NCBI GenBank assembly: GCA_021780375.1
Contig: JAJXYT010000127.1
Span: 9,524 to 73,523, forward strand
Length of the DNA: 64,000 bases
DNA from: a bacterium
Lineage (GTDB): Bacteria > Verrucomicrobiota > Verrucomicrobiia > Limisphaerales > UBA11358
Reading direction: 5' to 3'
The position numbers were made by a program, and so were the translations under genes. Positions 19,061-35,506 of this stretch are shown in pieces (positions within the stretch are counted from its first letter, which is position 1; each line of letters opens with the position of its first letter). Below the pieces are notes generated by a model that ran no database searches, was not told the origin of the DNA, and saw nothing but the letters and a program-made list of their open reading frames with translations.

Positions 19061-19084
19061 TGGAGCCAATGGCCGGGATTGAAC
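19061..19084. repeat. Distal att-like direct repeat (copy of the last 24 nt of tRNA-Thr)
   Basis: TGGAGCCAATGGCCGGGATTGAAC is identical to 30618-30641. The flanking sequence on both sides is unrelated. Confidence 0.8.
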
Positions 19085-19448: not shown

Positions 19449-20516
19449 TTATTTCATCTGTGCCAGAATCTGGTCGGTGATGGCCTTCACCGCGGCCTCA
19501 GCTTCTGGATCGAGGCCGGCCGTAGTTTTGGCATTCGCGTCCACAGCGCAGGTGACGCCGGGGCGCCATTCCGCATTGTCACAGAGTTCGCATTCCTTCA
19601 TGCCGTAGCGCGGGTCCACGTAGCCGAGACTCTGCTTGATTTTGAGCAGGTCCTGAAGCTGGCCCGGCGTGAAGGTGTTCGGCGTTTTGCCGAGCTGCGC
19701 GGTGACCAGCAGGTTGCGGCAATACGCCTCAACGATTTCCACGCGCCAGTAGGCTTCCTCCAGATTGTTGTGGCTCCACGTCACGACGCCGTGGTTGGCC
19801 ATCAGGATCGTATTGTGCTTGTCCACCAGTTCAGCGACGAGCTTGCCCATTTCCGGCGTGCCGGGCGTGCGATACGGCGCCAAGGCCACGCTCAAAAACA
19901 CCTCGTATTCCGGGATCATGCACGTCGGCGGCACAATGCCCGCGATGGCGAATCCGGTGGCATAGGGCGGATGACAATGGCATGAGGCCACCGCCTTGGG
20001 CTGCTTTTGCATGATCTGCAAGTGCATCAAGATTTCACTGGTGCGTTTCTTGACGCCGCAGAGTTGGTTGCCCTCAAAATCCACGAGACACATGTCCTCC
20101 GGCTTGAGCGACCCCTTGCTGACGAGCGTCGGCGTGCAAATCGCGATGTCTTCGCCCGCGCGAATAACCATGTTGCCGCCATTGCCGTCCACGTAGGCGC
20201 GCTGCCAGAGACGACGGCCGATTTCGCACATCTGCTCCTTCAAACTGTGCGCGTAAGACGAATGGAAAAAGGCCTCCAATTCCGATCGGGACGACTTCGA
20301 ACTCAGCGGCCGGGAAGGCGGCGCGGGTTTGTCCCCGTTCGCAATGACACCGGAGTTGTTTTTGTCGGCGGTTACTTTCGTTCCGCCATTGGTTTCCAGT
20401 TCAAAAAGAAGGTCACGCGCGGACGGCGTGAGGATGGCATCGGCCGGAAGATTCTTCACGTCCTGGCCGCTACGAACCATTTCCCGCACATCCCGAACAC
20501 TGATAATCCTGTTCAT
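19449..20516 (-). CDS. Class II aldolase (fuculose/rhamnulose-1-phosphate aldolase-like), BMC-associated, with N-terminal extension and C-terminal encapsulation-peptide-like helix
   Basis: The class II aldolase/adducin core runs GNGGNMVIRAG...HCHPPYATGFAI...LMANHGVVTW. Start is set at ATG 20516 (MNRIISVRDV...), 16 nt after the upstream stop. The C-terminus EAEAAVKAITDQILAQMK is amphipathic. Confidence 0.85.
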   Translation of the reverse strand: MNRIISVRDVREMVRSGQDVKNLPADAILTPSARDLLFELETNGGTKVTADKNNSGVIANGDKPAPPSRPLSSKSSRSELEAFFHSSYAHSLKEQMCEIGRRLWQRAYVDGNGGNMVIRAGEDIAICTPTLVSKGSLKPEDMCLVDFEGNQLCGVKKRTSEILMHLQIMQKQPKAVASCHCHPPYATGFAIAGIVPPTCMIPEYEVFLSVALAPYRTPGTPEMGKLVAELVDKHNTILMANHGVVTWSHNNLEEAYWRVEIVEAYCRNLLVTAQLGKTPNTFTPGQLQDLLKIKQSLGYVDPRYGMKECELCDNAEWRPGVTCAVDANAKTTAGLDPEAEAAVKAITDQILAQMK

Positions 20517-20532
20517 AAAATCAAAATCCAAC

Positions 20533-20838
20533 TCAGCCCCGCCACGGGCTGTAAAACATTTCGTCCACGAGCACGGTGTTGATTGCGTCCACCGGTGTCG
20601 GCCGGGCAAACGGCTGGGCGGCCTCGCGGCCTTCCTCGTAACCAATGATTTGCCGCGCGTCTGCGCCCAGATCGTCGTAAACGACAAGGCTGGGGTCTTG
20701 GCCCATGCCCGCGGGCGCGTTGAGACCGGCGGCGAACTGCTCGCGGCTGAATGGACTGACGATCAAAAATCTCCCGCCTTTGAGCGAGTCCATGGCCTGG
20801 CTCAAAGTCACCCGGCCGATGACGGTTCCGAGTTTCAT
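20533..20838 (-). CDS. BMC-P pentameric vertex protein (EutN/CcmL family), paralog 3
   Basis: MKLGTVIGRVTLSQAMDSLKGGRFLIVSP...PVDAINTVLVDEM is consistent with the EutN fold. The ATGA start/stop overlap with the upstream BMC-P at 20835-20838 suggests translational coupling. Confidence 0.8.
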   Translation of the reverse strand: MKLGTVIGRVTLSQAMDSLKGGRFLIVSPFSREQFAAGLNAPAGMGQDPSLVVYDDLGADARQIIGYEEGREAAQPFARPTPVDAINTVLVDEMFYSPWRG

Positions 20839-21113
20839 ATTCTTTTTCCGGGTTCGTGTTCGTCCACGATGCCAATCACCAGCCAGCGCACCGGGCTTCG
20901 GTCGTCGCCCACCGCCCGCCGTGCCGCCAAACCGTCCGACGAAATGATCACTGCCTGGTGCATCCCCGCGCCGTGCGAATCTATCGCCAACTGCGGCGCG
21001 CCTTCCGGCTTGCCGCTCGCGCCGACGGGCTGGCAAATGACGAGACGCCAGCCGTGGAGACTCGGATGCTTCCGGGTCGCCACGACGTTGCCTTCAACGC
21101 GCGCGAGCAGCAT
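20835..21113 (-). CDS. BMC-P pentameric vertex protein (EutN/CcmL family), paralog 2
   Basis: MLLARVEGNVVATRKHPSLHGWRLVICQPV...AIDSHGAGMHQAVIISSDG...WLVIGIVDE matches the EutN family. Confidence 0.9.
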   Translation of the reverse strand: MLLARVEGNVVATRKHPSLHGWRLVICQPVGASGKPEGAPQLAIDSHGAGMHQAVIISSDGLAARRAVGDDRSPVRWLVIGIVDEHEPGKRI

Positions 21114-21116
21114 AAA

Positions 21117-22631
21117 TCAATAGATCCTCAATTGGTCCACCATCACGCAGCGGCGGACGCGTGTAAATGTGCGCGGATTTGTCACCCCTTCGCCGGTCGG
21201 CGTGGCGATGGAATAGCTCAAGTAACCTTCGCCGCCCAGGCCAAGGCCAGCCATGCACGGGCCATTCTTGATGAATAGCGTCGTGTCCAGCGCACGTGCC
21301 ATCGCTGTCATGTTTTCCACGTCATGCGAATGGATGATGCTCGTATGTTTGTACCCGTGCTCGGCTTTCAGTGCGTGTTCAATACCTTCCTCTATGCTCT
21401 GCACACGGACAATGGGCACAAATGGCATCATTTGTTCCTCTTCGACGAATGGATGGTTTGCGTCCGTTTCGGCGAACAGCAATTGCGTGTCCGGCCGGAT
21501 GTCCACGCCCGCCGCGCGCGCGAGGATAACCGGGTCTTTGCCAATGAATTCTTTGTTTACGCTCGCGCGGGCGCAACCACCGCCCTGGCCATCCGTGATG
21601 GTAAAGGCCGCCTTCGTCAACTGGTCGAGCTGCGCGGAATTCAGCTTCATTCCGCCATTTTCCGACATTTGTTGGATCAGATTATCGGCCACGTGGTCGA
21701 GCACGAAAATTTCCTTTTCGCCGATGCACAGCAGATTGTTGTCGTATGCGGCGCCGGCGATGATTGCCCGGGCGGCGCGCTTCAGACAGCAGGTGTCGTC
21801 CACGAACACCGGCGGATTGCCGGGGCCGGCGCAGATGGCACGCTTGCCCGTTTGCATGGCGGCTTTCACGACTGCCGGACCGCCGGTGACCAGCAGCAAC
21901 CGGACGGATTCGTGTTTGCAAATTGCATTGAAACTTTCGAGGGTTGGCTTTTCGACAAGGCAGGCGATATTCTCGATGCCCGTTTCACGGTAAATCGCTT
22001 CATTGTAGGTCCGCACCGCGTGGGCGGCGCAACGCGCGGCGCCCGGATGCGGATTGAAAACCACCGCGTTGCCGGCGGCGGCGATGTTCACAATGTTGCC
22101 GGTCATCGTCGGCACCGAATGCGTGCTGGGCGTGACCGCGCCGACGACGCCGAACGGCGTGTACTCTTCCAGCGTGATGCCGTGATCACCGCTCCGGCCG
22201 TCCGGATGGAGCCAGTCCACGCCGGGCACCAGCTTGATGATTTTCAACTTCTCGATTTTGTGATCCAGCCGGCCGATGTTGGTCTCGTCAAGTTCCAGCT
22301 TGCCCCACGCCTCGGCGTTTTTTCCGGCGAGGGTCTTGACAATTTCCTCAATTTTTCGGCGGGCTTCGATCCCTTTTTGTTTGAGCTGCAAATAAGCTTC
22401 CTGGGCGGCGGCACAAGCTTCATTCGCATCCTGAAACACACCGAATTTGCCGCGCAGGGAGACGTTCGCTGCGGAAGATTTCCTCGTTTCGCAACCGCAC
22501 GCTGGCGTTAGTGCGCGCCGTGGGGCGGACGGAGCCGGGAGCGGCCTGGCATCCGCGCCCGGGGCGCTGCCCAATTTGCCGAGCACTTCGGCCACCACGT
22601 CGCGGATCAAAGTTTCGTTCACGGCATTCAT
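21117..22631 (-). CDS. CoA-acylating aldehyde dehydrogenase (PduP/EutE family) with N-terminal encapsulation peptide
   Basis: 504-aa ALDH-fold protein (GGPAVVKAAMQTGKRAICAGPGNPP, catalytic Cys region NNLLCIGEKE). The N-terminal MNAVNETLIRDVVAEVLGKLG is a classic amphipathic encapsulation-peptide-like helix followed by a linker. Confidence 0.9.
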   Translation of the reverse strand: MNAVNETLIRDVVAEVLGKLGSAPGADARPLPAPSAPRRALTPACGCETRKSSAANVSLRGKFGVFQDANEACAAAQEAYLQLKQKGIEARRKIEEIVKTLAGKNAEAWGKLELDETNIGRLDHKIEKLKIIKLVPGVDWLHPDGRSGDHGITLEEYTPFGVVGAVTPSTHSVPTMTGNIVNIAAAGNAVVFNPHPGAARCAAHAVRTYNEAIYRETGIENIACLVEKPTLESFNAICKHESVRLLLVTGGPAVVKAAMQTGKRAICAGPGNPPVFVDDTCCLKRAARAIIAGAAYDNNLLCIGEKEIFVLDHVADNLIQQMSENGGMKLNSAQLDQLTKAAFTITDGQGGGCARASVNKEFIGKDPVILARAAGVDIRPDTQLLFAETDANHPFVEEEQMMPFVPIVRVQSIEEGIEHALKAEHGYKHTSIIHSHDVENMTAMARALDTTLFIKNGPCMAGLGLGGEGYLSYSIATPTGEGVTNPRTFTRVRRCVMVDQLRIY

Positions 22632-22638
22632 GATTCAA

Positions 22639-22953
22639 TCACTGCGACTTCGCACTAAAGATTTGTTTTCCGAAGACATCCACGGTGTCCACGATGCCGA
22701 TGATGACGGCATCCACCGGCGCCTCCTTCAGGCCTGGCGCCAGGCGCGAGCTGCTGCCCTGGCAGAACAAAACCATCTCGCCTTCGCCGCAGCCGACGCT
22801 GTCCACGGCCACGATGGTGTTCACACCCGGACGGAATTTCGCCGGGTTCTTTTCGTCCACGAGTTGCGGACGGAGCAACAAGAGTTTGCGCCCCGACAGG
22901 TTCGGGCTTTTCTTGGTGGCGACCACGGTGCCTTCGACTTTGGCCAGAAACAT
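22639..22953 (-). CDS. BMC-P pentameric vertex protein (EutN/CcmL family), paralog 1
   Basis: MFLAKVEGTVVATKKSPNLSGRKLLLLRPQ...AVDSVGCGEGEMVLFCQGSS...AVIIGIVDTVD matches the EutN family. Start is set at the internal ATG 22953. Confidence 0.85.
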   Translation of the reverse strand: MFLAKVEGTVVATKKSPNLSGRKLLLLRPQLVDEKNPAKFRPGVNTIVAVDSVGCGEGEMVLFCQGSSSRLAPGLKEAPVDAVIIGIVDTVDVFGKQIFSAKSQ

Positions 22954-23040
22954 AAATGTTGGGCAGTTAGGAGACGGGAGTTGGAACTCAGGAATAACAG
23001 CGGGTAAAAACCCATCTGCCATCCGCCAACTCCAATCCGC

Positions 23041-23322
23041 TTATTTCTTTTTCGGCAACACCGCCTCGACATCGTTGTGCGGACGGGCGATGACATGAAC
23101 GCTAACCAGCTCGCCTTTGATGGCTTTGATAGCCTGTGCGCCGGCGTCCGTCGCCGCCTTGACCGCGGCGACGTCGCCAACGACACACGCTGTGACGAGC
23201 GCATTGCCGACCTGCGTCACCGGGCCGACCAGTTCGACATTGGCGGCCTTGAGCATGGCATCCGTGCCCTCGACGAGGGCGACGAGTCCGCGTGTTTCAA
23301 TGAGTCCGATTGCTTGTGGCAT
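23041..23322 (-). CDS. BMC-H hexameric shell protein (PduA/EutM type, Pfam00936-like)
   Basis: MPQAIGLIETRGLVALVEGTDAMLKAANVELVG...[14 protein letters not shown]...VSVHVIARPH is a canonical BMC domain. Confidence 0.95.
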   Translation of the reverse strand: MPQAIGLIETRGLVALVEGTDAMLKAANVELVGPVTQVGNALVTACVVGDVAAVKAATDAGAQAIKAIKGELVSVHVIARPHNDVEAVLPKKK

Positions 23323-23360
23323 AGTTTTATTTCGTTGATGGTTGAACCTTGTTCGTTAAA

Positions 23361-24551
23361 TCAATTTTTCTTCGCTTCCAAAAATCGCTTGGCTTCGCGC
23401 GCCACAACCAGTTCCTCGTTCGCGGGAATGACAAACAATTTTACCGCCGAATCCGCGGTGCTGATAACGGCTTCGGCCGCGCGCGCGGAGTTGTTCCTGC
23501 CCGCATCCAGTTTGATTCCGAGGTTTTCCAGGTTCGTGCAAATCGCCGCGCGCAACGCCGGATGGTTCTCCCCCGTGCCGGCGGTGAACACCATGGCATC
23601 CGCGCCGTTCAATTCCAGGAAATAGCTGCCGATCCAATGCCGCGCGCTGGCGACGAAAACGTCGAGCGCAAGTTTGGCCCTGGTGTTTCCTTTGGCTGCC
23701 GCAGCGGTGATGTCGCGCACGTCGTTGGAAACGCCGCTCAATCCGAGCAACCCGGACTGTTTTGTGAGCTGTTCCCGCGCTTTTTCCACGCTCAGGCCGA
23801 GGGTTTTCATGGCGTAAGGCAGGGCCTCGGCGTCAAGGTCGCCGACGCGGTTGTTCTGCGGCAGGCCGGATTGCGGGCTCATGCCCATGCTCGTGCCGAT
23901 GGAGACGCCGTTCAGGACCCCGGTGATGCTTGAACTGCCACCCAAATGGCAGGAAATCACCCGCAACGGCGCGCCGGAAATTTTCGCCGGGCCGCTCTGG
24001 ACGTATAGCTGCCGCGCGCGCTCGGCCACGTCGGGCCGGCCGAGCAGCTCCGCCGAACGCTCGGCAATGAACTTGTGGCTCGCCCCGTGAAAACCCCAAC
24101 GGCGAATGCCAATGTTCAGCCATGCTTCCGGCACGGCGTAGCGTTGGGAAGCTTCGGGCGCAAACTGGTGAAACGCCGTTTCAAACAATCCAATGAGCGG
24201 GACGCGGGGCACACGTTGCGCAAATAGCTTGATGCCGGCGAGGTACGACGGATTGTGCGCGGGCGCAAGGGCGCTGTAATCGGCCATCGCCTGCAACACG
24301 CGCTGGTCCAGCTCCACGCAGCCGGTGATATTTTTGGCGATGACGGTTTTGAAGCCGACCGCGCTCAACTCACCTTCGCCCTGAATCGCGTTCGTTTTTT
24401 TCAACTCAACCAGACAATCCTCAATCGCCCGGGAGTAATCCGTCACCCGCTCGAAGCCGCCTTCATGCACAAGGCGCTCGGCGCTGTTTGAAAAGTCAAA
24501 CAGGCGCCACTTCAGCGAAGTCGAACCAATGTTGGCGACAAGGATCTTCAT
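23361..24551 (-). CDS. ackA: Acetate/propionate kinase family protein (BMC-locus acyl-phosphate kinase)
   Basis: MKILVANIGSTSLKWRLFDF..., RRWGFHGASH and ISCHLGGSSS are acetate kinase signatures. The true start is ATG 24551; the 108 upstream codons in the track ORF are Arg-rich shadow. Confidence 0.9.
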   Translation of the reverse strand: MKILVANIGSTSLKWRLFDFSNSAERLVHEGGFERVTDYSRAIEDCLVELKKTNAIQGEGELSAVGFKTVIAKNITGCVELDQRVLQAMADYSALAPAHNPSYLAGIKLFAQRVPRVPLIGLFETAFHQFAPEASQRYAVPEAWLNIGIRRWGFHGASHKFIAERSAELLGRPDVAERARQLYVQSGPAKISGAPLRVISCHLGGSSSITGVLNGVSIGTSMGMSPQSGLPQNNRVGDLDAEALPYAMKTLGLSVEKAREQLTKQSGLLGLSGVSNDVRDITAAAAKGNTRAKLALDVFVASARHWIGSYFLELNGADAMVFTAGTGENHPALRAAICTNLENLGIKLDAGRNNSARAAEAVISTADSAVKLFVIPANEELVVAREAKRFLEAKKN

Positions 24552-24637
24552 ATTGGCAATCTTGGATTCATGATTTGCGAGTGTTACTGACGCACGGAAT
24601 TTTCCCGGCGCGTCCCGCATCAATCGCAACCCATAAA

Positions 24638-24916
24638 TCACTCCAGCCACTTGCCCAGTCCGCTCAATCCTTCGTGCGGGCGCGGAATCACCTGGACGCT
24701 GACAACCGAGCCGACTTGCGACGCGGCGGCGGCGCCCGAATCCGTCGCGGCCTTGACGGCGGCAACGTCGCCGCGGAAAAACACAGTGACGTATCCGCTG
24801 CCGATTTTTTCCCAGCCGGTGATATGGACGCTTGCGGATTTTAGCGCGGCATCGGCGGCCTCCATGGCCGCGCAAAATCCCTTGGTTTCAATCATGCCCA
24901 CAGCTTGCTTTGACAT
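24638..24916 (-). CDS. BMC-H hexameric shell protein
   Basis: [61 protein letters not shown]...VQVIPRPH is a BMC domain. Only the last 92 codons of the 191-aa track ORF are real. Confidence 0.9.
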
Positions 24917-24950
24917 AAATGTGAATGGTTTGGGTTGTGTGTTGAGATAA

Positions 24951-25235
24951 TCATTTCTTTGCGCCCTGGCCGAGGAAGGCCTGGAGCAATTCGTCATGAG
25001 GGCGCGCAATGACGTGCGAACAAATGAGTTCGCCGACTTTGGCCGCAGCCCTGGCGCCGGCGTCCACTGCGGCCTTGATGCTGCCGACGTCACCCCTGGC
25101 GAGGACGGTGATGAGCCCGCCACCGATGGGGATGGTTTTGACCAACGTGACGTTGGCCGCCTTGACCATGGCGTCGCTGGCTTCCACACTGCCAACGTAG
25201 CCCTTGGTTTCAATCATTCCTATTGCTTCACTCAT
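24951..25235 (-). CDS. BMC-H hexameric shell protein
   Basis: [34 protein letters not shown]...[14 protein letters not shown]...SHVIARPH is a BMC domain. Confidence 0.95.
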
Positions 25236-25281
25236 GTTTTGTTTTGGTTGCTGGTTGAGGTTGTCGAAAATGTTCCGGCAA

Positions 25282-25959
25282 TCATTTGACGAGTTCTACC
25301 GGTGTGTCCGGTTCCAGGTTGCACGCGTTGCCCTCGTCGGTGTCAATGTGGACCTCCAGTTTGAACACCTTGTCCACCCGGCAAAGCATTTTGTCGAGGA
25401 AGATGCCGCACTCGCCGCCAATTTTGAGCTTTATGGCATCGCCGCCTTTTACACCGTAAAATTCCGCGTCCGCCGGGCTCAGGTGCACGTGCCGCATCGC
25501 GCGAATGACGCCCTGCTCCATTTCAAAAAAACCTGCCGGCCCCATCAACATCGCCCCGGGCGTGCCTTGAATGTTGCCCGAAAGCCGCAGGGGAACGTTG
25601 AAGCCAAGCGCGATGGCGTCGCTATAGGCCAGTTCCACCTGATTCAAATTCCGGCACGGGCCGAGGATGCGCAGATTGGAGATCACGCGGCTGCGCGGGC
25701 CGATGAGTGTGACCGTTTCCTTTGCCGCGAACTGGCCTTCCTGATAAAGCCATTTGTGCACGCCAAGTTGGTGGCCCTTGCCAAAAAGAAGTTCCACGGT
25801 TTCAGGCGTGAGGTGGCAATGCCGCGCGCTAACGTTGACGACCAGCGGATTCGGCGCCACAGCCACACGCGGCAACGGTTTGCCCAAGCGCGCGTAAACT
25901 GCCCGTCGGACGAGATGTTCGACCACAGCGCGATGAGGTGCAGGCATCACGGCATTCAT
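25282..25959 (-). CDS. pduL: PduL-type phosphotransacylase with N-terminal extension
   Basis: Two PduL repeats are present: [20 protein letters not shown] and [18 protein letters not shown]. The N-terminal [18 protein letters not shown] is amphipathic and encapsulation-peptide-like. Confidence 0.9.
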
Positions 25960-26045: not shown

Positions 26046-26834
26046 ATGACGGCAGAAGAGCGTAAACATCGCATTGAAACCTATCTTCAACGGGTTGAAT
26101 TCGCGTCACTGGAGGAATTATCCCGGCATGTGAATGCCTCTATTTCCACCATTCGGCGCGATTTAACAACGCTCGAAGCGGCAGGAAATTTGCGCCGCAC
26201 TCATGGTGGCGCACGCTTGGTGACACCAAAGACCGACGAATTTGCGTTTACGGCACGCGATACACACCAGGTTTCGGAAAAGGAAGCCATCGGCAAAGCC
26301 TGCGCCGCACTGATTGACGCGAACCAAAGCGTGATTCTCGACGCGGGGACGACGGTTTATCACGTCGCACGGCATCTCGAAGAAAGGGCACTGCAGATCG
26401 TGACGAACTCTCTGCCAGTCGCAAATCTTTTTGCCTCCGCAAACAAGATGGAAATCATTCTGGCGGGCGGGGTGATTTATCCGCGACTTGGCGTGCTGGT
26501 CGGGCCGATGACGGTCGAAGCGTATTCCAAGCTGCGTGCCAGCGTGGCGATCATGGGCGCGGGCGGCATTACGCTTGAAGGCATCACGAATTCGCACGCG
26601 CTGTTGATTGACATCCAGCGCGCGATGCTGAAAGCGGCACAGAAAATCATTTTTTGTCTCGACCACACAAAATTTGGGCGGCCGTCCGTCTCCCCACTCT
26701 GCGAACTCGACCGGGCGGACACCATCGTCACAGACAGCCACGCCCCGCAAGAGCTAGTTGCTGGTTTGCGTGCACGGGGAATCGAAGTGATTGTGGCGCC
26801 GGAAACACCAGACCGGCTGGACAACTGCGGATAG
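26046..26834 (+). CDS. DeoR-family transcriptional regulator
   Basis: The N-terminal HTH is EELSRHVNASISTIRRDLTTLEAAGNLRRTHGGA. The C-terminal DeoR sugar-phosphate sensor domain includes SVILDAGTTVYHVARHL and IVTNSLPVA. Confidence 0.9.
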   Translation: MTAEERKHRIETYLQRVEFASLEELSRHVNASISTIRRDLTTLEAAGNLRRTHGGARLVTPKTDEFAFTARDTHQVSEKEAIGKACAALIDANQSVILDAGTTVYHVARHLEERALQIVTNSLPVANLFASANKMEIILAGGVIYPRLGVLVGPMTVEAYSKLRASVAIMGAGGITLEGITNSHALLIDIQRAMLKAAQKIIFCLDHTKFGRPSVSPLCELDRADTIVTDSHAPQELVAGLRARGIEVIVAPETPDRLDNCG

Positions 26835-26842
26835 AATTAAAA

Positions 26843-28159
26843 ATGAACCTGGCAGAAGAAGTCAGATTAGCCGGTGTCGTCGGGGCGGGCGGCGGCGGAT
26901 TTCCCACCCACGTCAAGCTTAACGCCAAGGCTGAAACTGTGATTGCCAACGGCGCGGAATGCGAGCCACTCCTGCACAAGGACGCTGTCATCATGGAAGA
27001 AAGCGCCGCCGAAGTGGTGCGCGGAATGCAGCTGGCCATCGAAGCTGTGGGCGCGAAGGAAGGCGTCATCGGCATCAAAGGCAAAAAGAAGCGCGCCGTC
27101 GAGGCGGTCGCCGCCGCCTGCCAGGGCAGGAATATTCGCGTCCAGTTGCTGGGCGACTATTATCCGGCCGGCGATGAATTCGATTTGGTTTACAGCGTCA
27201 CCGGCAAGTTAATTCCGCCCGGGGGCATTCCCCTTGACGTCGGCGTTCTTGTCAACAACGTCGAGACGTTCGTGAACATTGCCGCCGCCCACGACGGCCA
27301 GCCGCTTACGCATAAAATGCTGACGATTGCCGGCGCGGTAAAATCGCCGGCGACCCTGAAGGTGCCGTTGGGCACGACGTTCCGCGAGTGCATCCAACAT
27401 GCCGGCGGCCTGGCGACGGACGATCCGGTGTTGGTCATCGGAGGTCTGATGATGGGCCGGCACACCGACGACCTCGACACCCCTGTCACCAAGACTTCGA
27501 CCGGCGGCGTCATTCTGCCTCGCACACATCACGTCATCGAACGCAAGCTCAAGCCCAGCCGGGCGCAAGCGAGCATCGGCAAGTCCGCATGCGACCAATG
27601 CCGTTACTGCACCGAGTATTGTCCGAGATATTTACTCGGTTACTCCGTCGAGCCCCACCAAGTCATGCGCACGCTCGCCTTCACCGGCACGGGCGCGGAT
27701 TATTACAATCAGTGGGCGGCCCTGTGCTGCGCGTGTGGACTCTGCACGCTTTACGCCTGCCCGGAGGAGTTGTTTCCGAAGGAAGCCTGCGACGACGCCA
27801 AAGCGGTCATGCGTGCCAAACAAATCAAGTGGACCGGCCCCATGCATCCCAAGCCGCACGCGATGGCGGATGGGCGCCATGTGCCCATCCAGATGCTGGC
27901 GAAAAAACTGCACGTGCTTGATTATGATTTGCCCGCGCCGCTGCTCGAAGAGGCAATTGCACCAGGCCGGCTCATTCTGCCGCTCAAGCAAAGTGCGGGA
28001 ACAGCGTGCTTGCCGAAAGTGAAGATTGGCGACCGCGTGAGTGCCGGTCAAGTCATCGGTGAACCGGCCCCGAACGCGCTCGGTGCATTATTGCACGCGC
28101 CGGTTGCCGGCGTCGTCAACGGGGTAAATGCTCAACAAATCATTCTAGAGATATCATGA
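26843..28159 (+). CDS. RnfC/PduS-like Fe-S (flavo)protein
   Basis: GVVGAGGGGFPTHVKL is an RnfC-type motif, and an SLBB-like segment is present. There are two ferredoxin-type Cys clusters: CDQCRYCTEYCP and CCACGLCTLYACP. The C-terminal barrel-sandwich-like tail is VKIGDRVSAGQVIG. Start is ATG 26843; the track ORF start at 26654 overlaps DeoR. Confidence 0.8.
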   Translation: MNLAEEVRLAGVVGAGGGGFPTHVKLNAKAETVIANGAECEPLLHKDAVIMEESAAEVVRGMQLAIEAVGAKEGVIGIKGKKKRAVEAVAAACQGRNIRVQLLGDYYPAGDEFDLVYSVTGKLIPPGGIPLDVGVLVNNVETFVNIAAAHDGQPLTHKMLTIAGAVKSPATLKVPLGTTFRECIQHAGGLATDDPVLVIGGLMMGRHTDDLDTPVTKTSTGGVILPRTHHVIERKLKPSRAQASIGKSACDQCRYCTEYCPRYLLGYSVEPHQVMRTLAFTGTGADYYNQWAALCCACGLCTLYACPEELFPKEACDDAKAVMRAKQIKWTGPMHPKPHAMADGRHVPIQMLAKKLHVLDYDLPAPLLEEAIAPGRLILPLKQSAGTACLPKVKIGDRVSAGQVIGEPAPNALGALLHAPVAGVVNGVNAQQIILEIS

Positions 28160-28707
28160 ACGAAAAATCTATCGGCCTGCTTGAACTCTCGAGCATTGCG
28201 GCAGGTTTCCTGGTCGCCGACACTATGCTCAAAGCCAGCAACGTGCGCATCCTGCTCTCGCGTTCGATCTGCTCGGGTAAATACATGGTCCTGATTGGAG
28301 GTGAGACGGCGGCGGTCGAGGCCGCCACAGCGGCGGGCGAGTCGGCGGCCAACGGCTGCCTGATTGACAGCCTCACGCTCGCCAATCTGCATCCGGACGT
28401 GATCACGGCAATCGGCCGCACGCAGCCAGTCCAGCCGGACGGCGCGCTGGGCGTCCTTGAATCATTTAACGTGGCCACCATGATCAAGGCGGCCGATGCA
28501 GCGGCCAAGGCGGCCGATATAGAATTGTTGGAACTCCGGCTGGCGATGGCGCTGGGCGGCAAGGCGTTCTGCACCATGACCGGCGATGTGGCCTCGGTGC
28601 AGGCCGGCGTGGCTGCCGGCCGCGCGGTTATTGCTGAAGCCGGCGTGCTGGTGAATGCGGTGGTGATTTCACGGCCGCATCCGGACGTTTACCGTGAAGT
28701 GATTTGA
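28156..28707 (+). CDS. BMC-T tandem-domain shell protein, PduT-like
   Basis: There are two BMC domains. By recall it aligns with Salmonella PduT ([21 protein letters not shown] vs [33 protein letters not shown] vs DSLVLANIHPSV), including the pore Cys that ligates a [4Fe-4S] cluster in PduT. An ATGA overlap links it to the preceding gene. Confidence 0.85.
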   Translation: [183 protein letters not shown]

Positions 28708-28940: not shown

Positions 28941-29676
28941 TCAAAAAAACGGCGCGAGCAAACCCTGGATTTTTTCGGGGTGTTTCTGCACCGCGTCAAA
29001 AGTGCGAAACAAACTACCGCAAAGATCGGCGGGCTTTTCAAAGAACCGGTGATGGGTGGCCTCCCGACGAGTGTAATGCCAGAGCCGTTCCTGAGCGTTG
29101 AGTTCGGGCGAGTATTTGGGCAGCGGAAAGCCTTCCGGTGTCACCACAACTGCGATCACCAGTTGCGCGCGATCGGGCCGATGATCCCGGGAATAGCCGC
29201 GCGCCGCTTTTTCGACGCCTTCCGCCTCCCCTTCGAAATACGTGCTGGTCAGGTCGTAGAGCAGCACGTCGAAACTGGCGCCAAAGAGATCGCGCCATTT
29301 ATCGGCCAGATGCCGCTCCAACGCGTCCTTGTGCCCCACCATCCGGTCCAGGGCCCGATACAGCCGATCCTTCTGCGCCACCGCTGCGCTGCCACCGTTC
29401 CACCTGCGTGGTGTTCAGTTCGCCCAAGTGCAGCACCCTGCGTTGCACCACGCGTTGGCGGCTGACGCGAAGACTTTCCGTGAGGCTATAGTAAACATGG
29501 CGCTTGCCGTCTTTACAACGCTTGTGCGCCTTCAGAAACGTGTCGGCATTCTGACAACGGGCGAGCGGCGCCTGTCTACGGGCTGGGTCTTCCCACAGGC
29601 TTCCAGCGCTCGGCTCATGCAAAATCGCCAGCAAATCGCCACCGACGTTCGCAAAAAAAAATCCAAATCGCTGCAT
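28941..29676 (-). mobile_element. Decayed transposase debris: frameshifted IS1634-family N-terminal part fused to an IS630-family C-terminal fragment
   Basis: Frame A (29299-29676) reads KDGKRHVYYSLTESLRVSRQRVVQRRVLHLGELNTTQVERW. Frame B (29121-29381) reads LLYDLTSTYFEGEAEGVEKAARGYSRDHRPDRAQLVIAVVVTPEGFP, which is IS1634/IS4-like. Residues encoded at 28944-29120 read LPKYSPELNAQERLWHYTRREATHHRFF, an IS630 DDE_3 tail. No intact transposase and no inverted repeats were recognised. Confidence 0.6.
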
Positions 29677-29763: not shown

Positions 29764-29949
29764 ATGCAACCGCGACTGCACATCAAAGACATTTGCCGGA
29801 TTTACGGCTTCTCGAGGTCCACCCTGTACCGCCGGCTTCGTGACGGCCGTTTCCCCAGGCCGATCCGGAGCCTGGGACTGATCTGGCAGCCCGAGGACCT
29901 GGCCCTGGCAGAATCCGCGGGACAGGTCCCGCCGCGGCAGTCCCCTTAA
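29764..29949 (+). CDS. alpA: AlpA/excisionase-type small HTH protein
   Basis: The 61-aa product contains LHIKDICRIYGFSRSTLYRRLRDGRFPRPIR, the AlpA-family pattern (SRST.YR....G.FP.P). Its location between IS debris and the att/tRNA site fits this call. Confidence 0.65.
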   Translation: MQPRLHIKDICRIYGFSRSTLYRRLRDGRFPRPIRSLGLIWQPEDLALAESAGQVPPRQSP

Positions 29950-30070
29950 TTGTCCCGCCTTTAACCTGGATTTGAGCTTGGAAAGGGCTTTGCCCCGTCA
30001 AATTGTCCCCGGTTTTGTCCCATCAATCTGTCCCAAGGATGTCCCTTGAAATTGTCCCGCCAAATGTCCC
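29950..30070 (+). repeat. Iteron array: direct repeats of (A/T)TGTCCC, six of them at 11-13 bp spacing
   Basis: TTGTCCC occurs at 29950, 30003, 30015 and 30052; CTGTCCC at 30028; ATGTCCC at 30039 and 30064. One more TTGTCCC at 29757 abuts the alpA ATG. All copies have the same orientation. Confidence 0.75.
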
Positions 30071-30132
30071 AGATCGGCATCCGGGACGGAAAAGTGTCTT
30101 GAAAGGGGTACAAAGCATGTTGTCATTTTGAT

Positions 30133-30393
30133 ATGAAGCAAATTTTGATTCGGGAAGTAGAAGACGATTTTGTTGAGATCCTGGATCGGGAAGCCAAACG
30201 GCACCGGCGAAGTCGTGAGAAACATGCCCTGTTCCTTATCGAGCAGGGACTGGGTCAGCGGCCATTGGAGACTGCCGGTGAACTGCTGGACGCGCTTGAA
30301 GCGGCGCCAGCGCCAAATCTCGTGAGTGAGCAGGAGATCGAAAAGATTCTTCGGCAGCGAGGACGCAGATCGAATCGTCCGGCAACGCCATGA
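30133..30393 (+). CDS. Ribbon-helix-helix antitoxin (FitA/VapB/Arc-like)
   Basis: MKQILIREVEDDFVEILDREAKRHRRSREKHALFLIEQGL matches the RHH antitoxin N-terminal pattern. An ATGA overlap joins it to a PIN-like start. Confidence 0.6.
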   Translation: MKQILIREVEDDFVEILDREAKRHRRSREKHALFLIEQGLGQRPLETAGELLDALEAAPAPNLVSEQEIEKILRQRGRRSNRPATP

Positions 30394-30491
30394 TTGCGGA
30401 CACGACTTTTCTAAGCGATTTGGTGAGAGAATTCCGGGACAACCGGACGGGACCGGCAACAAGAATTTTTCCGGCCACTCGCGCCCGATAA
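30390..30491 (+). pseudogene. Truncated PIN-domain (VapC/FitB-like) toxin, first 33 codons only
   Basis: MIADTTFLSDLVRE... matches the PIN N-terminal strand with the first acidic residue (M-I-x-D-T-x-x-L/I-x-D/E-L). The frame stops after 33 aa, whereas normal PIN toxins are ~130 aa. Confidence 0.45.
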
Positions 30492-30617: not shown

Positions 30618-30641
30618 TGGAGCCAATGGCCGGGATTGAAC
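30618..30641. repeat. tRNA-proximal att-like repeat (3' 24 nt of tRNA-Thr)
   Basis: Identical to 19061-19084. Confidence 0.8.
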
Positions 30642-30692
30642 CGGCGACCGACGGTTTACGAAACCGTTGCTCTACCGCTGAGCTACATTGGC
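30618..30692 (-). tRNA. tRNA-Thr (anticodon CGU), CCA encoded
   Basis: Hand-folded cloverleaf: GCCAATG TA GCTC AGCGGTA GAGC A ACGGT TTCGTAA ACCGT CGGTC GCCGG TTCAATC CCGGC CATTGGC T CCA. All four stems are fully paired, the T-loop is TTCAATC, and the total length is 75 nt. Confidence 0.9.
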
Positions 30693-34513: not shown

Positions 34514-35506
34514 TTAATGGCTCTTTATAGATTCATTAAGATACGTAGCCAGCGAAGAGATTTGCATGTCTGACAGCGGGCCGCCGTCGGTACCGGAAAA
34601 CGCCGGCATCAGCGAACCGGGTTTGCCATGGGCGATCCAGATGCGCCAGAATTCGAAATTGGTCGGCGTTTTGAGCGCGTGCAAATCCGGCACCATCGTC
34701 GCGCGATGTGCACTGTCATGGCAAATGGCGCAATCGGCCTGGTAAAGTGCCTGGCCGTATTTGCCTTCACCCTGCCGGACATGGCACGTCGCGCATTCTG
34801 CCTTAAAGACCAACTGCCGATCGGCCACCGCCAGCTTCCGGTTGGTTTCACGCTCGGCTTCCGACATTTCAGGCATCTGGAAAGGCAGAATGGTGATTTT
34901 CAGCATCAAGGTTTTGGAACCTTTATCCGTATAGACCATCAATGTCTTGTACAACGTTCCAGTCGCAACATATAAGTTCACCGTTGCTTCGATCCGGCCG
35001 TTGGAGCCGGGCGCGAGGGTCCAGGGCAACGGCGGCAATTTTGTCGTGGTGCAGCCGCAGGACGGGCGCACACTCAAAATTGTGACCGGAGCCGGCGTCA
35101 CGGAATTTGTGACCGTGACCATGTTGGTGTGGCTGGTCACGCGGGCAATCCGGGTAATTTTTCTTCCAACCAGTCGCGCCCAAAAACTGGAATTGGTGAC
35201 CGTCGCGAAGTTGGTGACGCTGGTAATATTGGTGGCCAGGCCAAGATTAATTTGGGTTGCAACGTTGGTGAAACTGAAGACGAAATGTGCCGGCCCGGTA
35301 TTCGCGGTAACATTGGTTTCTTTCGTCGTCGCGTCCCAGGCCAGAACCCCATCGGGCAACGGCCCCGACGCGTGCGACAAATTCGGCACATAAACCGGCG
35401 GGGTGGCCACCGTGCTGTTGGATGGCTTGACCTCGGCAGCCACGAGGCCCGCGCCGGCCAGAATAATACCCGCAATCGCAAAAAGAAAATGACGGCTTGA
35501 TTTCAT
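34514..35506 (-). CDS. Secreted DUF1573-domain protein fused to a di-CxxCH c-type cytochrome-like module
   Basis: A signal peptide is present. The DUF1573 core is SVRPSCGCTTTKLPPLPWTLAPGSNGRIEATV. The C-terminus carries CATCH and CAICH motifs and ends in GSLMPAF. Confidence 0.7.
   Translation of the reverse strand: MKSSRHFLFAIAGIILAGAGLVAAEVKPSNSTVATPPVYVPNLSHASGPLPDGVLAWDATTKETNVTANTGPAHFVFSFTNVATQINLGLATNITSVTNFATVTNSSFWARLVGRKITRIARVTSHTNMVTVTNSVTPAPVTILSVRPSCGCTTTKLPPLPWTLAPGSNGRIEATVNLYVATGTLYKTLMVYTDKGSKTLMLKITILPFQMPEMSEAERETNRKLAVADRQLVFKAECATCHVRQGEGKYGQALYQADCAICHDSAHRATMVPDLHALKTPTNFEFWRIWIAHGKPGSLMPAFSGTDGGPLSDMQISSLATYLNESIKSH

Follow-up and report, generated by a model that had tools for sequence, protein, structure and literature searches.

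Two adjacent genes at positions 26843-28707 of a 64,000-nucleotide stretch of verrucomicrobial DNA (the window, by which we mean the whole stretch analysed) probably form the cofactor-recycling module of a fucose- and rhamnose-degrading metabolosome of the Planctomycetes-Verrucomicrobia (PVM) type, exporting electrons from the organelle. The first gene encodes a protein related to PduS and RnfC, and the second a PduT-like shell protein of the bacterial microcompartment (BMC) family; PduS has been renamed MNdh and its partner BMC-T^SE (Sutter et al. 2024, PNAS, PMC11626177). This assignment is carried by the pair itself, the domains and cofactor residues of its two proteins, the strict conservation of those residues, the adjacency of the genes, their linkage to a PVM locus and the finding of no alcohol dehydrogenase or Ldh gene in the 64 kb. 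The pair comprises the following features.

26843..28159, plus strand: gene of MNdh, a PduS/RnfC-like NADH dehydrogenase; ATG at 26843, TGA at 28157-28159, 438 amino acids (Pfam)
26882..26908, plus strand: GAGGGGFPT, glycine-rich motif of the flavin/nicotinamide site, MNdh residues 14-22 (from the sequence; aligns with GMGGATFPT of RnfC)
27590..27622, plus strand: [4Fe-4S] motif 1, C250-x2-C253-x2-C256-x3-C260-P (inside the Fer4_17 match)
27725..27760, plus strand: [4Fe-4S] motif 2, C295-x2-C298-x2-C301-x4-C306-P (sequence motif)
28156..28159, plus strand: ATGA start/stop overlap of the MNdh and BMC-T genes (read from the sequence)
28156..28707, plus strand: gene of BMC-T^SE, a PduT-like single-layer tandem-BMC shell protein; ATG at 28156, stop at 28705-28707, 183 amino acids
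28270..28272, plus strand: codon of Cys39, predicted ligand of the pore [4Fe-4S] cluster, in the motif SICSGK (CSGK codons 28270-28281; by alignment to PduT Cys38)

Consistent with an MNdh identity, Pfam profiles divided the 438-residue protein into four domains: Complex1_51K (PF01512, the Nuo51 domain that binds flavin mononucleotide (FMN)) at residues 7-147 (E = 1.1e-47, covering profile positions 1-149 of 150), SLBB (PF10531) at residues 160-205, the 4Fe-4S dicluster domain Fer4_17 at residues 249-310 and, at the C terminus, the barrel-sandwich domain RnfC_N (PF13375) at residues 369-432. This four-domain order with PF13375 last is the one that defines MNdh, and the permuted, C-terminal RnfC_N is the hallmark that separates MNdh from RnfC (PMC11626177). 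Among solved structures, the protein matched the RnfC subunits of three Rnf complexes (E from 1e-54 to 3e-44, best 7zc6_C) and, more weakly, NuoF. The alignment to RnfC ran over the whole length, with MNdh residues 368-428 pairing with the N-terminal residues 24-83 of RnfC, which amounts to a circular permutation. The rnfC subfamily model of NCBIfam gave 254 bits, over its cutoff of 246. The eight cluster cysteines were invariant in 80 of 80 MNdh sequences, as were, at the level of sequence, the motifs GAGGGGFP, NGAECEP and YPAGDE; the longer stretch GVVGAGGGGFP was at least 98% conserved over the same set. An earlier look at the bare letters of this DNA (the sequence-only reading) had described an RnfC/PduS-like protein behind a DeoR gene, with two four-cysteine clusters and a GGGGFPT motif, all of which the Pfam matches, motifs and exact coordinates bear out; it had also named the lack of a nucleotide or flavin site as grounds for giving up its proposal, and motifs of such a site are present and conserved in all 80 sequences. 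From its homologues (PMC11626177), the MNdh of the window is predicted to oxidise NADH and to associate with the luminal side of the shell.

The partner protein has the features expected of a shell-embedded electron conduit of the PduT type. Pfam found two PF00936 domains in its 183 residues (2.8e-40), and its best matches in the PDB were PduT-type trimers (3nwg, E = 2e-47, 47% identity; PduT itself, 3pac and 3n79, E about 1e-40, 41% identity). Within the first of the two domains, SICSGKY aligns with KTICPGKF of PduT, which places Cys39 on Cys38, the [4Fe-4S]-binding residue of PduT. Thus, the tandem-BMC protein of the sequence-only reading, with an ATGA overlap and a first domain that keeps the cysteine of the PduT motif ICxGK, is upheld. 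That reading had asked whether the pore cysteine is conserved among orthologues and took its loss to count against the proposal; we found it invariant in 74 of 74 sequences (the window and 73 orthologues). The motif around it was CSGK in all 74, with Cys, Gly and Lys kept and Ser at the second position, as against the CP(G/S)K consensus of the literature. Another cysteine, Cys68 in GCLID, was conserved in 73 of the 74. The eut_PduT model of NCBIfam scored 125 bits, under its 250-bit cutoff, so NCBIfam would leave the shell protein without a name. From the 41-47% identity with PduT-type crystal structures, the axis of the trimer is predicted to hold a [4Fe-4S] cluster; this identity, together with the match at E = 1e-54 to RnfC chains solved by cryo-electron microscopy, fixes the folds and ligand positions of the pair.

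In the mechanism that we propose, a CoA-acylating aldehyde dehydrogenase (AldDH) in the shell lumen would convert lactaldehyde to lactyl-CoA, reducing NAD+ to NADH. MNdh, docked on the BMC-T^SE trimer from the luminal side, would oxidise this NADH at its FMN site, and the electrons would pass through its two [4Fe-4S] clusters to a [4Fe-4S] cluster that three Cys39 residues hold at the pore of the trimer, and then on to some cytosolic acceptor. NAD+ would be regenerated in this way without lactaldehyde being diverted to 1,2-propanediol. We infer the luminal location, the direction of electron flow and the physiological importance of the pair in this organism; NADH oxidation, redox-active clusters and the docking model were established on a clostridial homologue (PMC11626177) and are expected here by analogy.

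The electron-export mechanism was already published in 2024, and the window locus is a further instance of it, not a new concept. In the published proposal, luminal NADH is oxidised and the electrons are exported via the shell cluster, avoiding an alcohol by-product; support came from NADH-oxidation assays, electron paramagnetic resonance, voltammetry, modelling and X-ray footprinting on the GRM1 pair of Clostridium botulinum (PMC11626177). The pair was reported in 2,172 loci, adjacent in 97% of them, and 361 loci had the pair without an alcohol dehydrogenase, the situation that prompted the model (PMC11626177). The central suggestion of the sequence-only reading, that NAD+ is recycled by exporting electrons through Fe-S clusters in the shell, is supported: none of the findings that would have spoken against it and could be checked here turned up (no loss of the pore cysteine, no lack of flavin-site motifs, no reductase candidate in the 64 kb), and the same mechanism has in-vitro backing elsewhere. 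The 2024 model was reached independently by a reader of raw sequence, and the locus is mainly confirmatory.

We searched the window for a reductase. Pfam scans, which covered all its major open reading frames, gave no match to PF00465, to zinc-type alcohol dehydrogenases or to the Ldh/Mdh family (PF00056/PF02866) anywhere in the 64 kb. The search was widened to the last of these because the canonical PVM locus is presumed to recycle NAD+ through a gene of the Ldh/Mdh family and not through an iron- or zinc-type alcohol dehydrogenase (Axen 2014, PMC4207490). Six-frame tblastn with FucO and AdhP of E. coli (E <= 0.01) returned nothing in the window and nothing in 80 related loci, and two PvmO-like queries of the Ldh type, taken from loci of relatives, found no match in the window (E <= 1e-5); PvmO (Ldh/Mdh), an accessory and not a defining PVM gene, is therefore absent from this locus. 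The sequence-only reading had noted no iron- or zinc-type alcohol dehydrogenase between the two repeats that flank the locus, and the absence turned out to be broader, reaching over 64 kb and including the Ldh/Mdh family. The locus offers a clean natural case of a metabolosome with an electron-export module and without an alcohol dehydrogenase.

The pair stands beside a complete set of PVM genes, laid out as follows.

26046..26834, plus strand: DeoR-family regulator gene (Pfam HTH_DeoR 4e-14, DeoRC 3e-44)
19449..25959, minus strand: PVM structural operon (Pfam, NCBIfam and independent gene calls), made up of the ten genes below
25282-25959, minus strand: PduL (Pfam, NCBIfam)
24951-25235, minus strand: BMC-H (single-domain BMC)
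24638-24916, minus strand: BMC-H (single-domain BMC)
23361-24560, minus strand: AckA, acetate kinase (Pfam, NCBIfam)
23041-23322, minus strand: BMC-H (single-domain BMC)
22639-22953, minus strand: BMC-P (EutN_CcmL)
21117-22631, minus strand: CoA-acylating AldDH (Pfam, NCBIfam)
20835-21113, minus strand: BMC-P (EutN_CcmL)
20533-20838, minus strand: BMC-P (EutN_CcmL)
19449-20516, minus strand: class II aldolase, the PVM signature enzyme (PF00596; Pfam, NCBIfam)

The deoR gene ends 8 nucleotides before the MNdh gene and is divergent from the structural operon. The same locus is present on an ENA metagenome contig (ERZ27236874, k141_2805700), for which independent gene calls gave an identical map. 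With three BMC-P and three BMC-H genes, the shell set has at least as many BMC-P as BMC-H, as PVM loci do, and the class II aldolase with its encapsulation-peptide-like helix, AldDH, PduL, acetate kinase and DeoR complete the PVM inventory. The C terminus of the aldolase ends in this conserved, amphipathic tail (EAEAAVKAITDQILAQMK). The locus is therefore PVM proper, a fucose/rhamnose-degrading metabolosome. The sequence-only reading had listed the aldolase, CoA-acylating AldDH, PduL and acetate kinase correctly (Pfam, NCBIfam), and its label 'PVM-like' has to be replaced; in the 2024 paper, 'PVM-like' loci are listed with the types that have neither recycling system (PMC11626177).

At its other end, the N terminus, the aldolase is extended by about 80 amino acids (residues 1-80, 20276-20516) that match no Pfam profile. 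Its first 40 or so residues are conserved, with I5, R8, D9, G17, P24 and AI..TPSA.D invariant in seven aligned sequences, and the gene call of the collection begins 12 codons later, cutting into this conserved block.

The composition of the locus also bears on the original description of PduS, according to which the MNdh protein would be a cobalamin reductase serving a B12-dependent enzyme. We find this hardly credible here. It has the historical annotation of PduS in its favour (Cheng & Bobik 2010 and Parsons 2010, as cited in Axen 2014, PMC4207490), but the enzyme that marks PVM loci is a class II aldolase, Pfam scans found no B12-dependent enzyme, adenosyltransferase or reactivase in the locus or the window, and the RnfC-like fold is argued to leave scant space for a corrin (PMC11626177). 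We rejected the B12-reductase identity for a locus without a B12 enzyme.

To place the electron-export module in its clade, we surveyed related loci. A scan of one genome per species gave 562 relatives, of which the best 80 (68-88% identity), almost all metagenome-assembled genomes labelled Verrucomicrobia and many of them from subdivision 3/Limisphaerales, were analysed. Longest-open-reading-frame calling with greedy clustering was contaminated by antisense frames at 58% GC, and the 'DeoR' cluster took in spurious frames; the clusters served for recurrent neighbours only, and all counts come from tblastn with defined queries. The MNdh and BMC-T genes were adjacent in every related locus showing both. 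Over 72 orthologous pairs, their spacing was -4 nucleotides (ATGA) in 22 and 1-26 nucleotides in most others. Counted over the 80 PduS-centred genome loci, the arrangement of the window, with PduL pointing away from DeoR, MNdh and BMC-T, was seen in 25 loci and probably, although cut, in 4 more; the main operon lay upstream and co-directional in 4, the pair formed a satellite (at least 5 kb upstream without a PVM core gene) in 28, and 19 were not assignable. DeoR-MNdh-BMC-T in the main locus was thus found in 25 of 57 classifiable loci of Verrucomicrobia subdivision 3, next to the 28 satellites. Main-locus integration is common in this clade, unlike the published 2 of 20; PVM belongs to the BMC types in which the pair was reported, with 20 occurrences, 18 of them satellite (PMC11626177).

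The neighbours of the pair in relatives were often genes of sugar or lactate catabolism. LutA, LutB and LutC (CCG, LUD and Fer4 domains) lay directly beside the pair, within 10 kb of MNdh, in nine loci (L015, L018, L020, L021, L023, L027, L028, L047 and L048), and the pair stood beside rhaA/rhaT/rhaB in four (L006, L032, L051 and L061) or fucI/fucP in four (L015, L021, L023 and L028). The rhamnose and fucose genes and LutABC therefore tie satellite copies to the PVM pathway. None of these lut, rha and fuc genes was seen in the window.

The sequence-only reading had called for a survey of whether the pair and an alcohol dehydrogenase exclude each other. No FucO or AdhP homologue occurred in the 80 related loci, as stated above. 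For Ldh, we examined a second sample of 80 aldolase-centred metagenome loci that were not selected for MNdh. Ldh stood directly after the aldolase in 13 of the 54 loci with that end visible. Among the 19 loci that show both ends, the four with MNdh/BMC-T behind DeoR had no Ldh after the aldolase, whereas the 15 without the pair in the main locus had Ldh in six and none in nine (Fisher p = 0.26). Pooled with the genome loci, Ldh was present in 1 of 20 loci with the main-locus pair as against 6 of 15 (p = 0.027), a comparison confounded by phylogeny. Two loci, L032 and L078, carry both Ldh after the aldolase and the pair. Mutual exclusivity of Ldh and main-locus MNdh/BMC-T was thus not established and is suggestive at most; Ldh directly after the aldolase was rare where the pair is in the main locus. 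Loci with neither Ldh nor a main-locus pair may have satellite copies.

Two of the loci show what can occupy the position after the aldolase. L032 (5307-6373) and L047 (5760-8703) are collinear, with 87-89% nucleotide identity on both sides, and differ only in the slot between aldolase and MNdh: L032 has an L-lactate dehydrogenase gene there, and L047 has lutABC. Downstream of the PVM pathway, L-lactate dehydrogenase and lutABC thus seem to be modules of lactate oxidation that can replace each other. In the common Ldh-type gene behind the aldolase, neither end is extended by a candidate encapsulation peptide. This lack of an extension, the swap in the slot and the rarity of Ldh with the main-locus pair (1 of 20 as against 6 of 15) would fit PvmO being an enzyme of cytosolic lactate oxidation, equivalent to LutABC, and not of NAD+ recycling in the lumen. 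The pair, built into the transcription unit of the regulator, could then be the sole NAD+ recycler of the PVM compartments of this subdivision 3 lineage, which would be 'alcohol-free' and turn all lactaldehyde into lactate. We put this stronger version forward tentatively and hold it to be doubtful. If true, PVM compartments in general could recycle NAD+ by sending electrons out through the shell, often with the genes in a satellite.

Several points weigh against reading the pair as the electron-export module of this organelle. Its function here is predicted by homology to characterised clostridial and enterobacterial proteins. AlphaFold docking of MNdh on BMC-T^SE split evenly between the luminal and the outer face (PMC11626177). 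In the pore motif, serine replaces the proline of the consensus CP(G/S)K, which is stated to be universally conserved (Sutter et al. 2024, PMC11626177). A conserved gene for a cytosolic electron acceptor was sought beside the pair and none was found, the neighbours being sugar- or lactate-catabolic or housekeeping genes. A FucO-like or Ldh-like reductase could lie elsewhere in the genome, the absence reported above covering the 64-kb window. Finally, Salmonella has both PduQ, an alcohol dehydrogenase, and PduS/PduT, and single knockouts merely slow growth (PMC11626177); this coexistence and the mild knockouts mean that the pair may be auxiliary and not the sole recycler.

One rival explanation is that the pair is auxiliary and condition-dependent, and that most NAD+ is recycled by an enzyme whose gene lies beyond the window, a lactaldehyde reductase or one of the Ldh type, much as in the Pdu system of Salmonella. 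The 1,725 published loci that carry both the pair and an alcohol dehydrogenase system (PMC11626177) fit this explanation, as do L032 and L078 and the satellite placement of the pair in 28 related genomes, which suggests modular or optional use. By contrast, no reductase gene was found in the 64 kb, and none stands beside 15 of the 16 window-type loci with the aldolase end visible. In addition, the pair follows deoR by 8 nucleotides and so lies with the regulator of the locus, which argues for co-expression with the organelle and against a separate regulon. On balance, we consider an auxiliary role unlikely.

Another rival is that electrons serve other ends than net NAD+ regeneration by export, such as inward delivery from a cytosolic donor, maintenance of Fe-S clusters or NADH-using scavenging of O2 in the lumen. 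O2 served as an acceptor in vitro (PMC11626177), either direction through PduT was considered by Axen 2014 and PVM compartments function in aerobes (PMC4207490). However, no enzyme of the locus needs low-potential electrons in the lumen, and the strict co-occurrence of the pair with an NADH-producing AldDH fits export (PMC11626177). We regard such other purposes as very unlikely. These considerations leave export of electrons from luminal NADH as the reading that we prefer.

The whole PVM locus is bracketed by a perfect 24-nucleotide direct repeat (TGGAGCCAATGGCCGGGATTGAAC) at 19061-19084 and 30618-30641, which in its right-hand copy forms the 3' end of a tRNA-Thr(CGT) gene (region 30618-30692). 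The 'att-like repeats' of the sequence-only reading are therefore real. Between the BMC-T gene and the tRNA lie the following features.

28941-29676, minus strand: DDE_3 transposase fragments
about 29765-29949: small AlpA-like HTH open reading frame
29940-30080: run of TGTCCC repeats
30133-30450: vapB-like gene and truncated PIN remnant

No intact integrase was found between BMC-T and the tRNA. The organelle locus thus seems to be carried on an 11.5-kb island integrated at a tRNA gene. Related loci share the gene order, with different flanks and without the tRNA-Thr. Elsewhere in the window, the neighbours include GH2, GH43 with CBM6 and GH31 proteins, ROK and AraC regulators, a PATR autotransporter, DUF1559 prepilin-like proteins and genes of amino-acid and biotin biosynthesis. 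The gene of a secreted fusion of DUF1573 and cytochrome c (34514-35506, minus strand) lies beyond the repeats, at a distance of 6 kb from the locus; a link between it and the organelle is unsupported.

PVM compartments abound among Verrucomicrobia and Planctomycetes that degrade polysaccharides, and the route of NAD+ recycling decides whether fucose and rhamnose carbon escapes as 1,2-propanediol. To the 2024 model, the survey adds invariant cofactor residues, a CSGK pore, DeoR-MNdh-BMC-T as a common arrangement of the main locus and the rarity of Ldh where the pair is in that locus. It suggests that far more PVM hosts carry the module than the 20 cases of 2024 imply, often in the main locus, which helps in the choice of an experimental system.

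Several known systems invite comparison. RnfC (PDB 7zc6, 9eri and 8ahx) has homologous FMN/NADH, SLBB and dicluster domains (E = 1e-54), but its barrel-sandwich domain is N-terminal and that of the window protein C-terminal; unlike in the Rnf complex, there is no rnfABDEG nearby, and the partner is a shell protein and not a membrane complex. The canonical PVM locus is that of Planctopirus limnophila, reportedly described by Erbilgin in 2014. The window locus shares with it the class II aldolase, AldDH, PduL, acetate kinase, DeoR, three BMC-P and three BMC-H genes and a verrucomicrobial host, whereas the canonical locus has an Ldh/Mdh gene and no BMC-T, and the window locus has MNdh/BMC-T^SE and no Ldh (PMC4207490). 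With the Pdu system of Salmonella enterica and Citrobacter freundii, it shares the PduS architecture of the MNdh-like protein and a BMC-T that is 41% identical to PduT, with Cys39 on Cys38; by contrast, the Pdu locus encodes the alcohol dehydrogenase PduQ and a B12-dependent diol dehydratase, and the window has neither. The closest likeness is to the MNdh/BMC-T^SE module characterised on the C. botulinum pair, with which the window shares the four Pfam domains and their permuted order, the motifs of the Fe-S clusters and flavin site, an adjacent tandem-BMC protein with the pore cysteine and an AldDH in a locus without an alcohol dehydrogenase. The window differs from it in its host type, a PVM locus with an aldolase signature in Verrucomicrobia, and in its CSGK pore; its pair follows deoR within the main locus, as against the 18 of 20 PVM occurrences that are satellite in the published survey.

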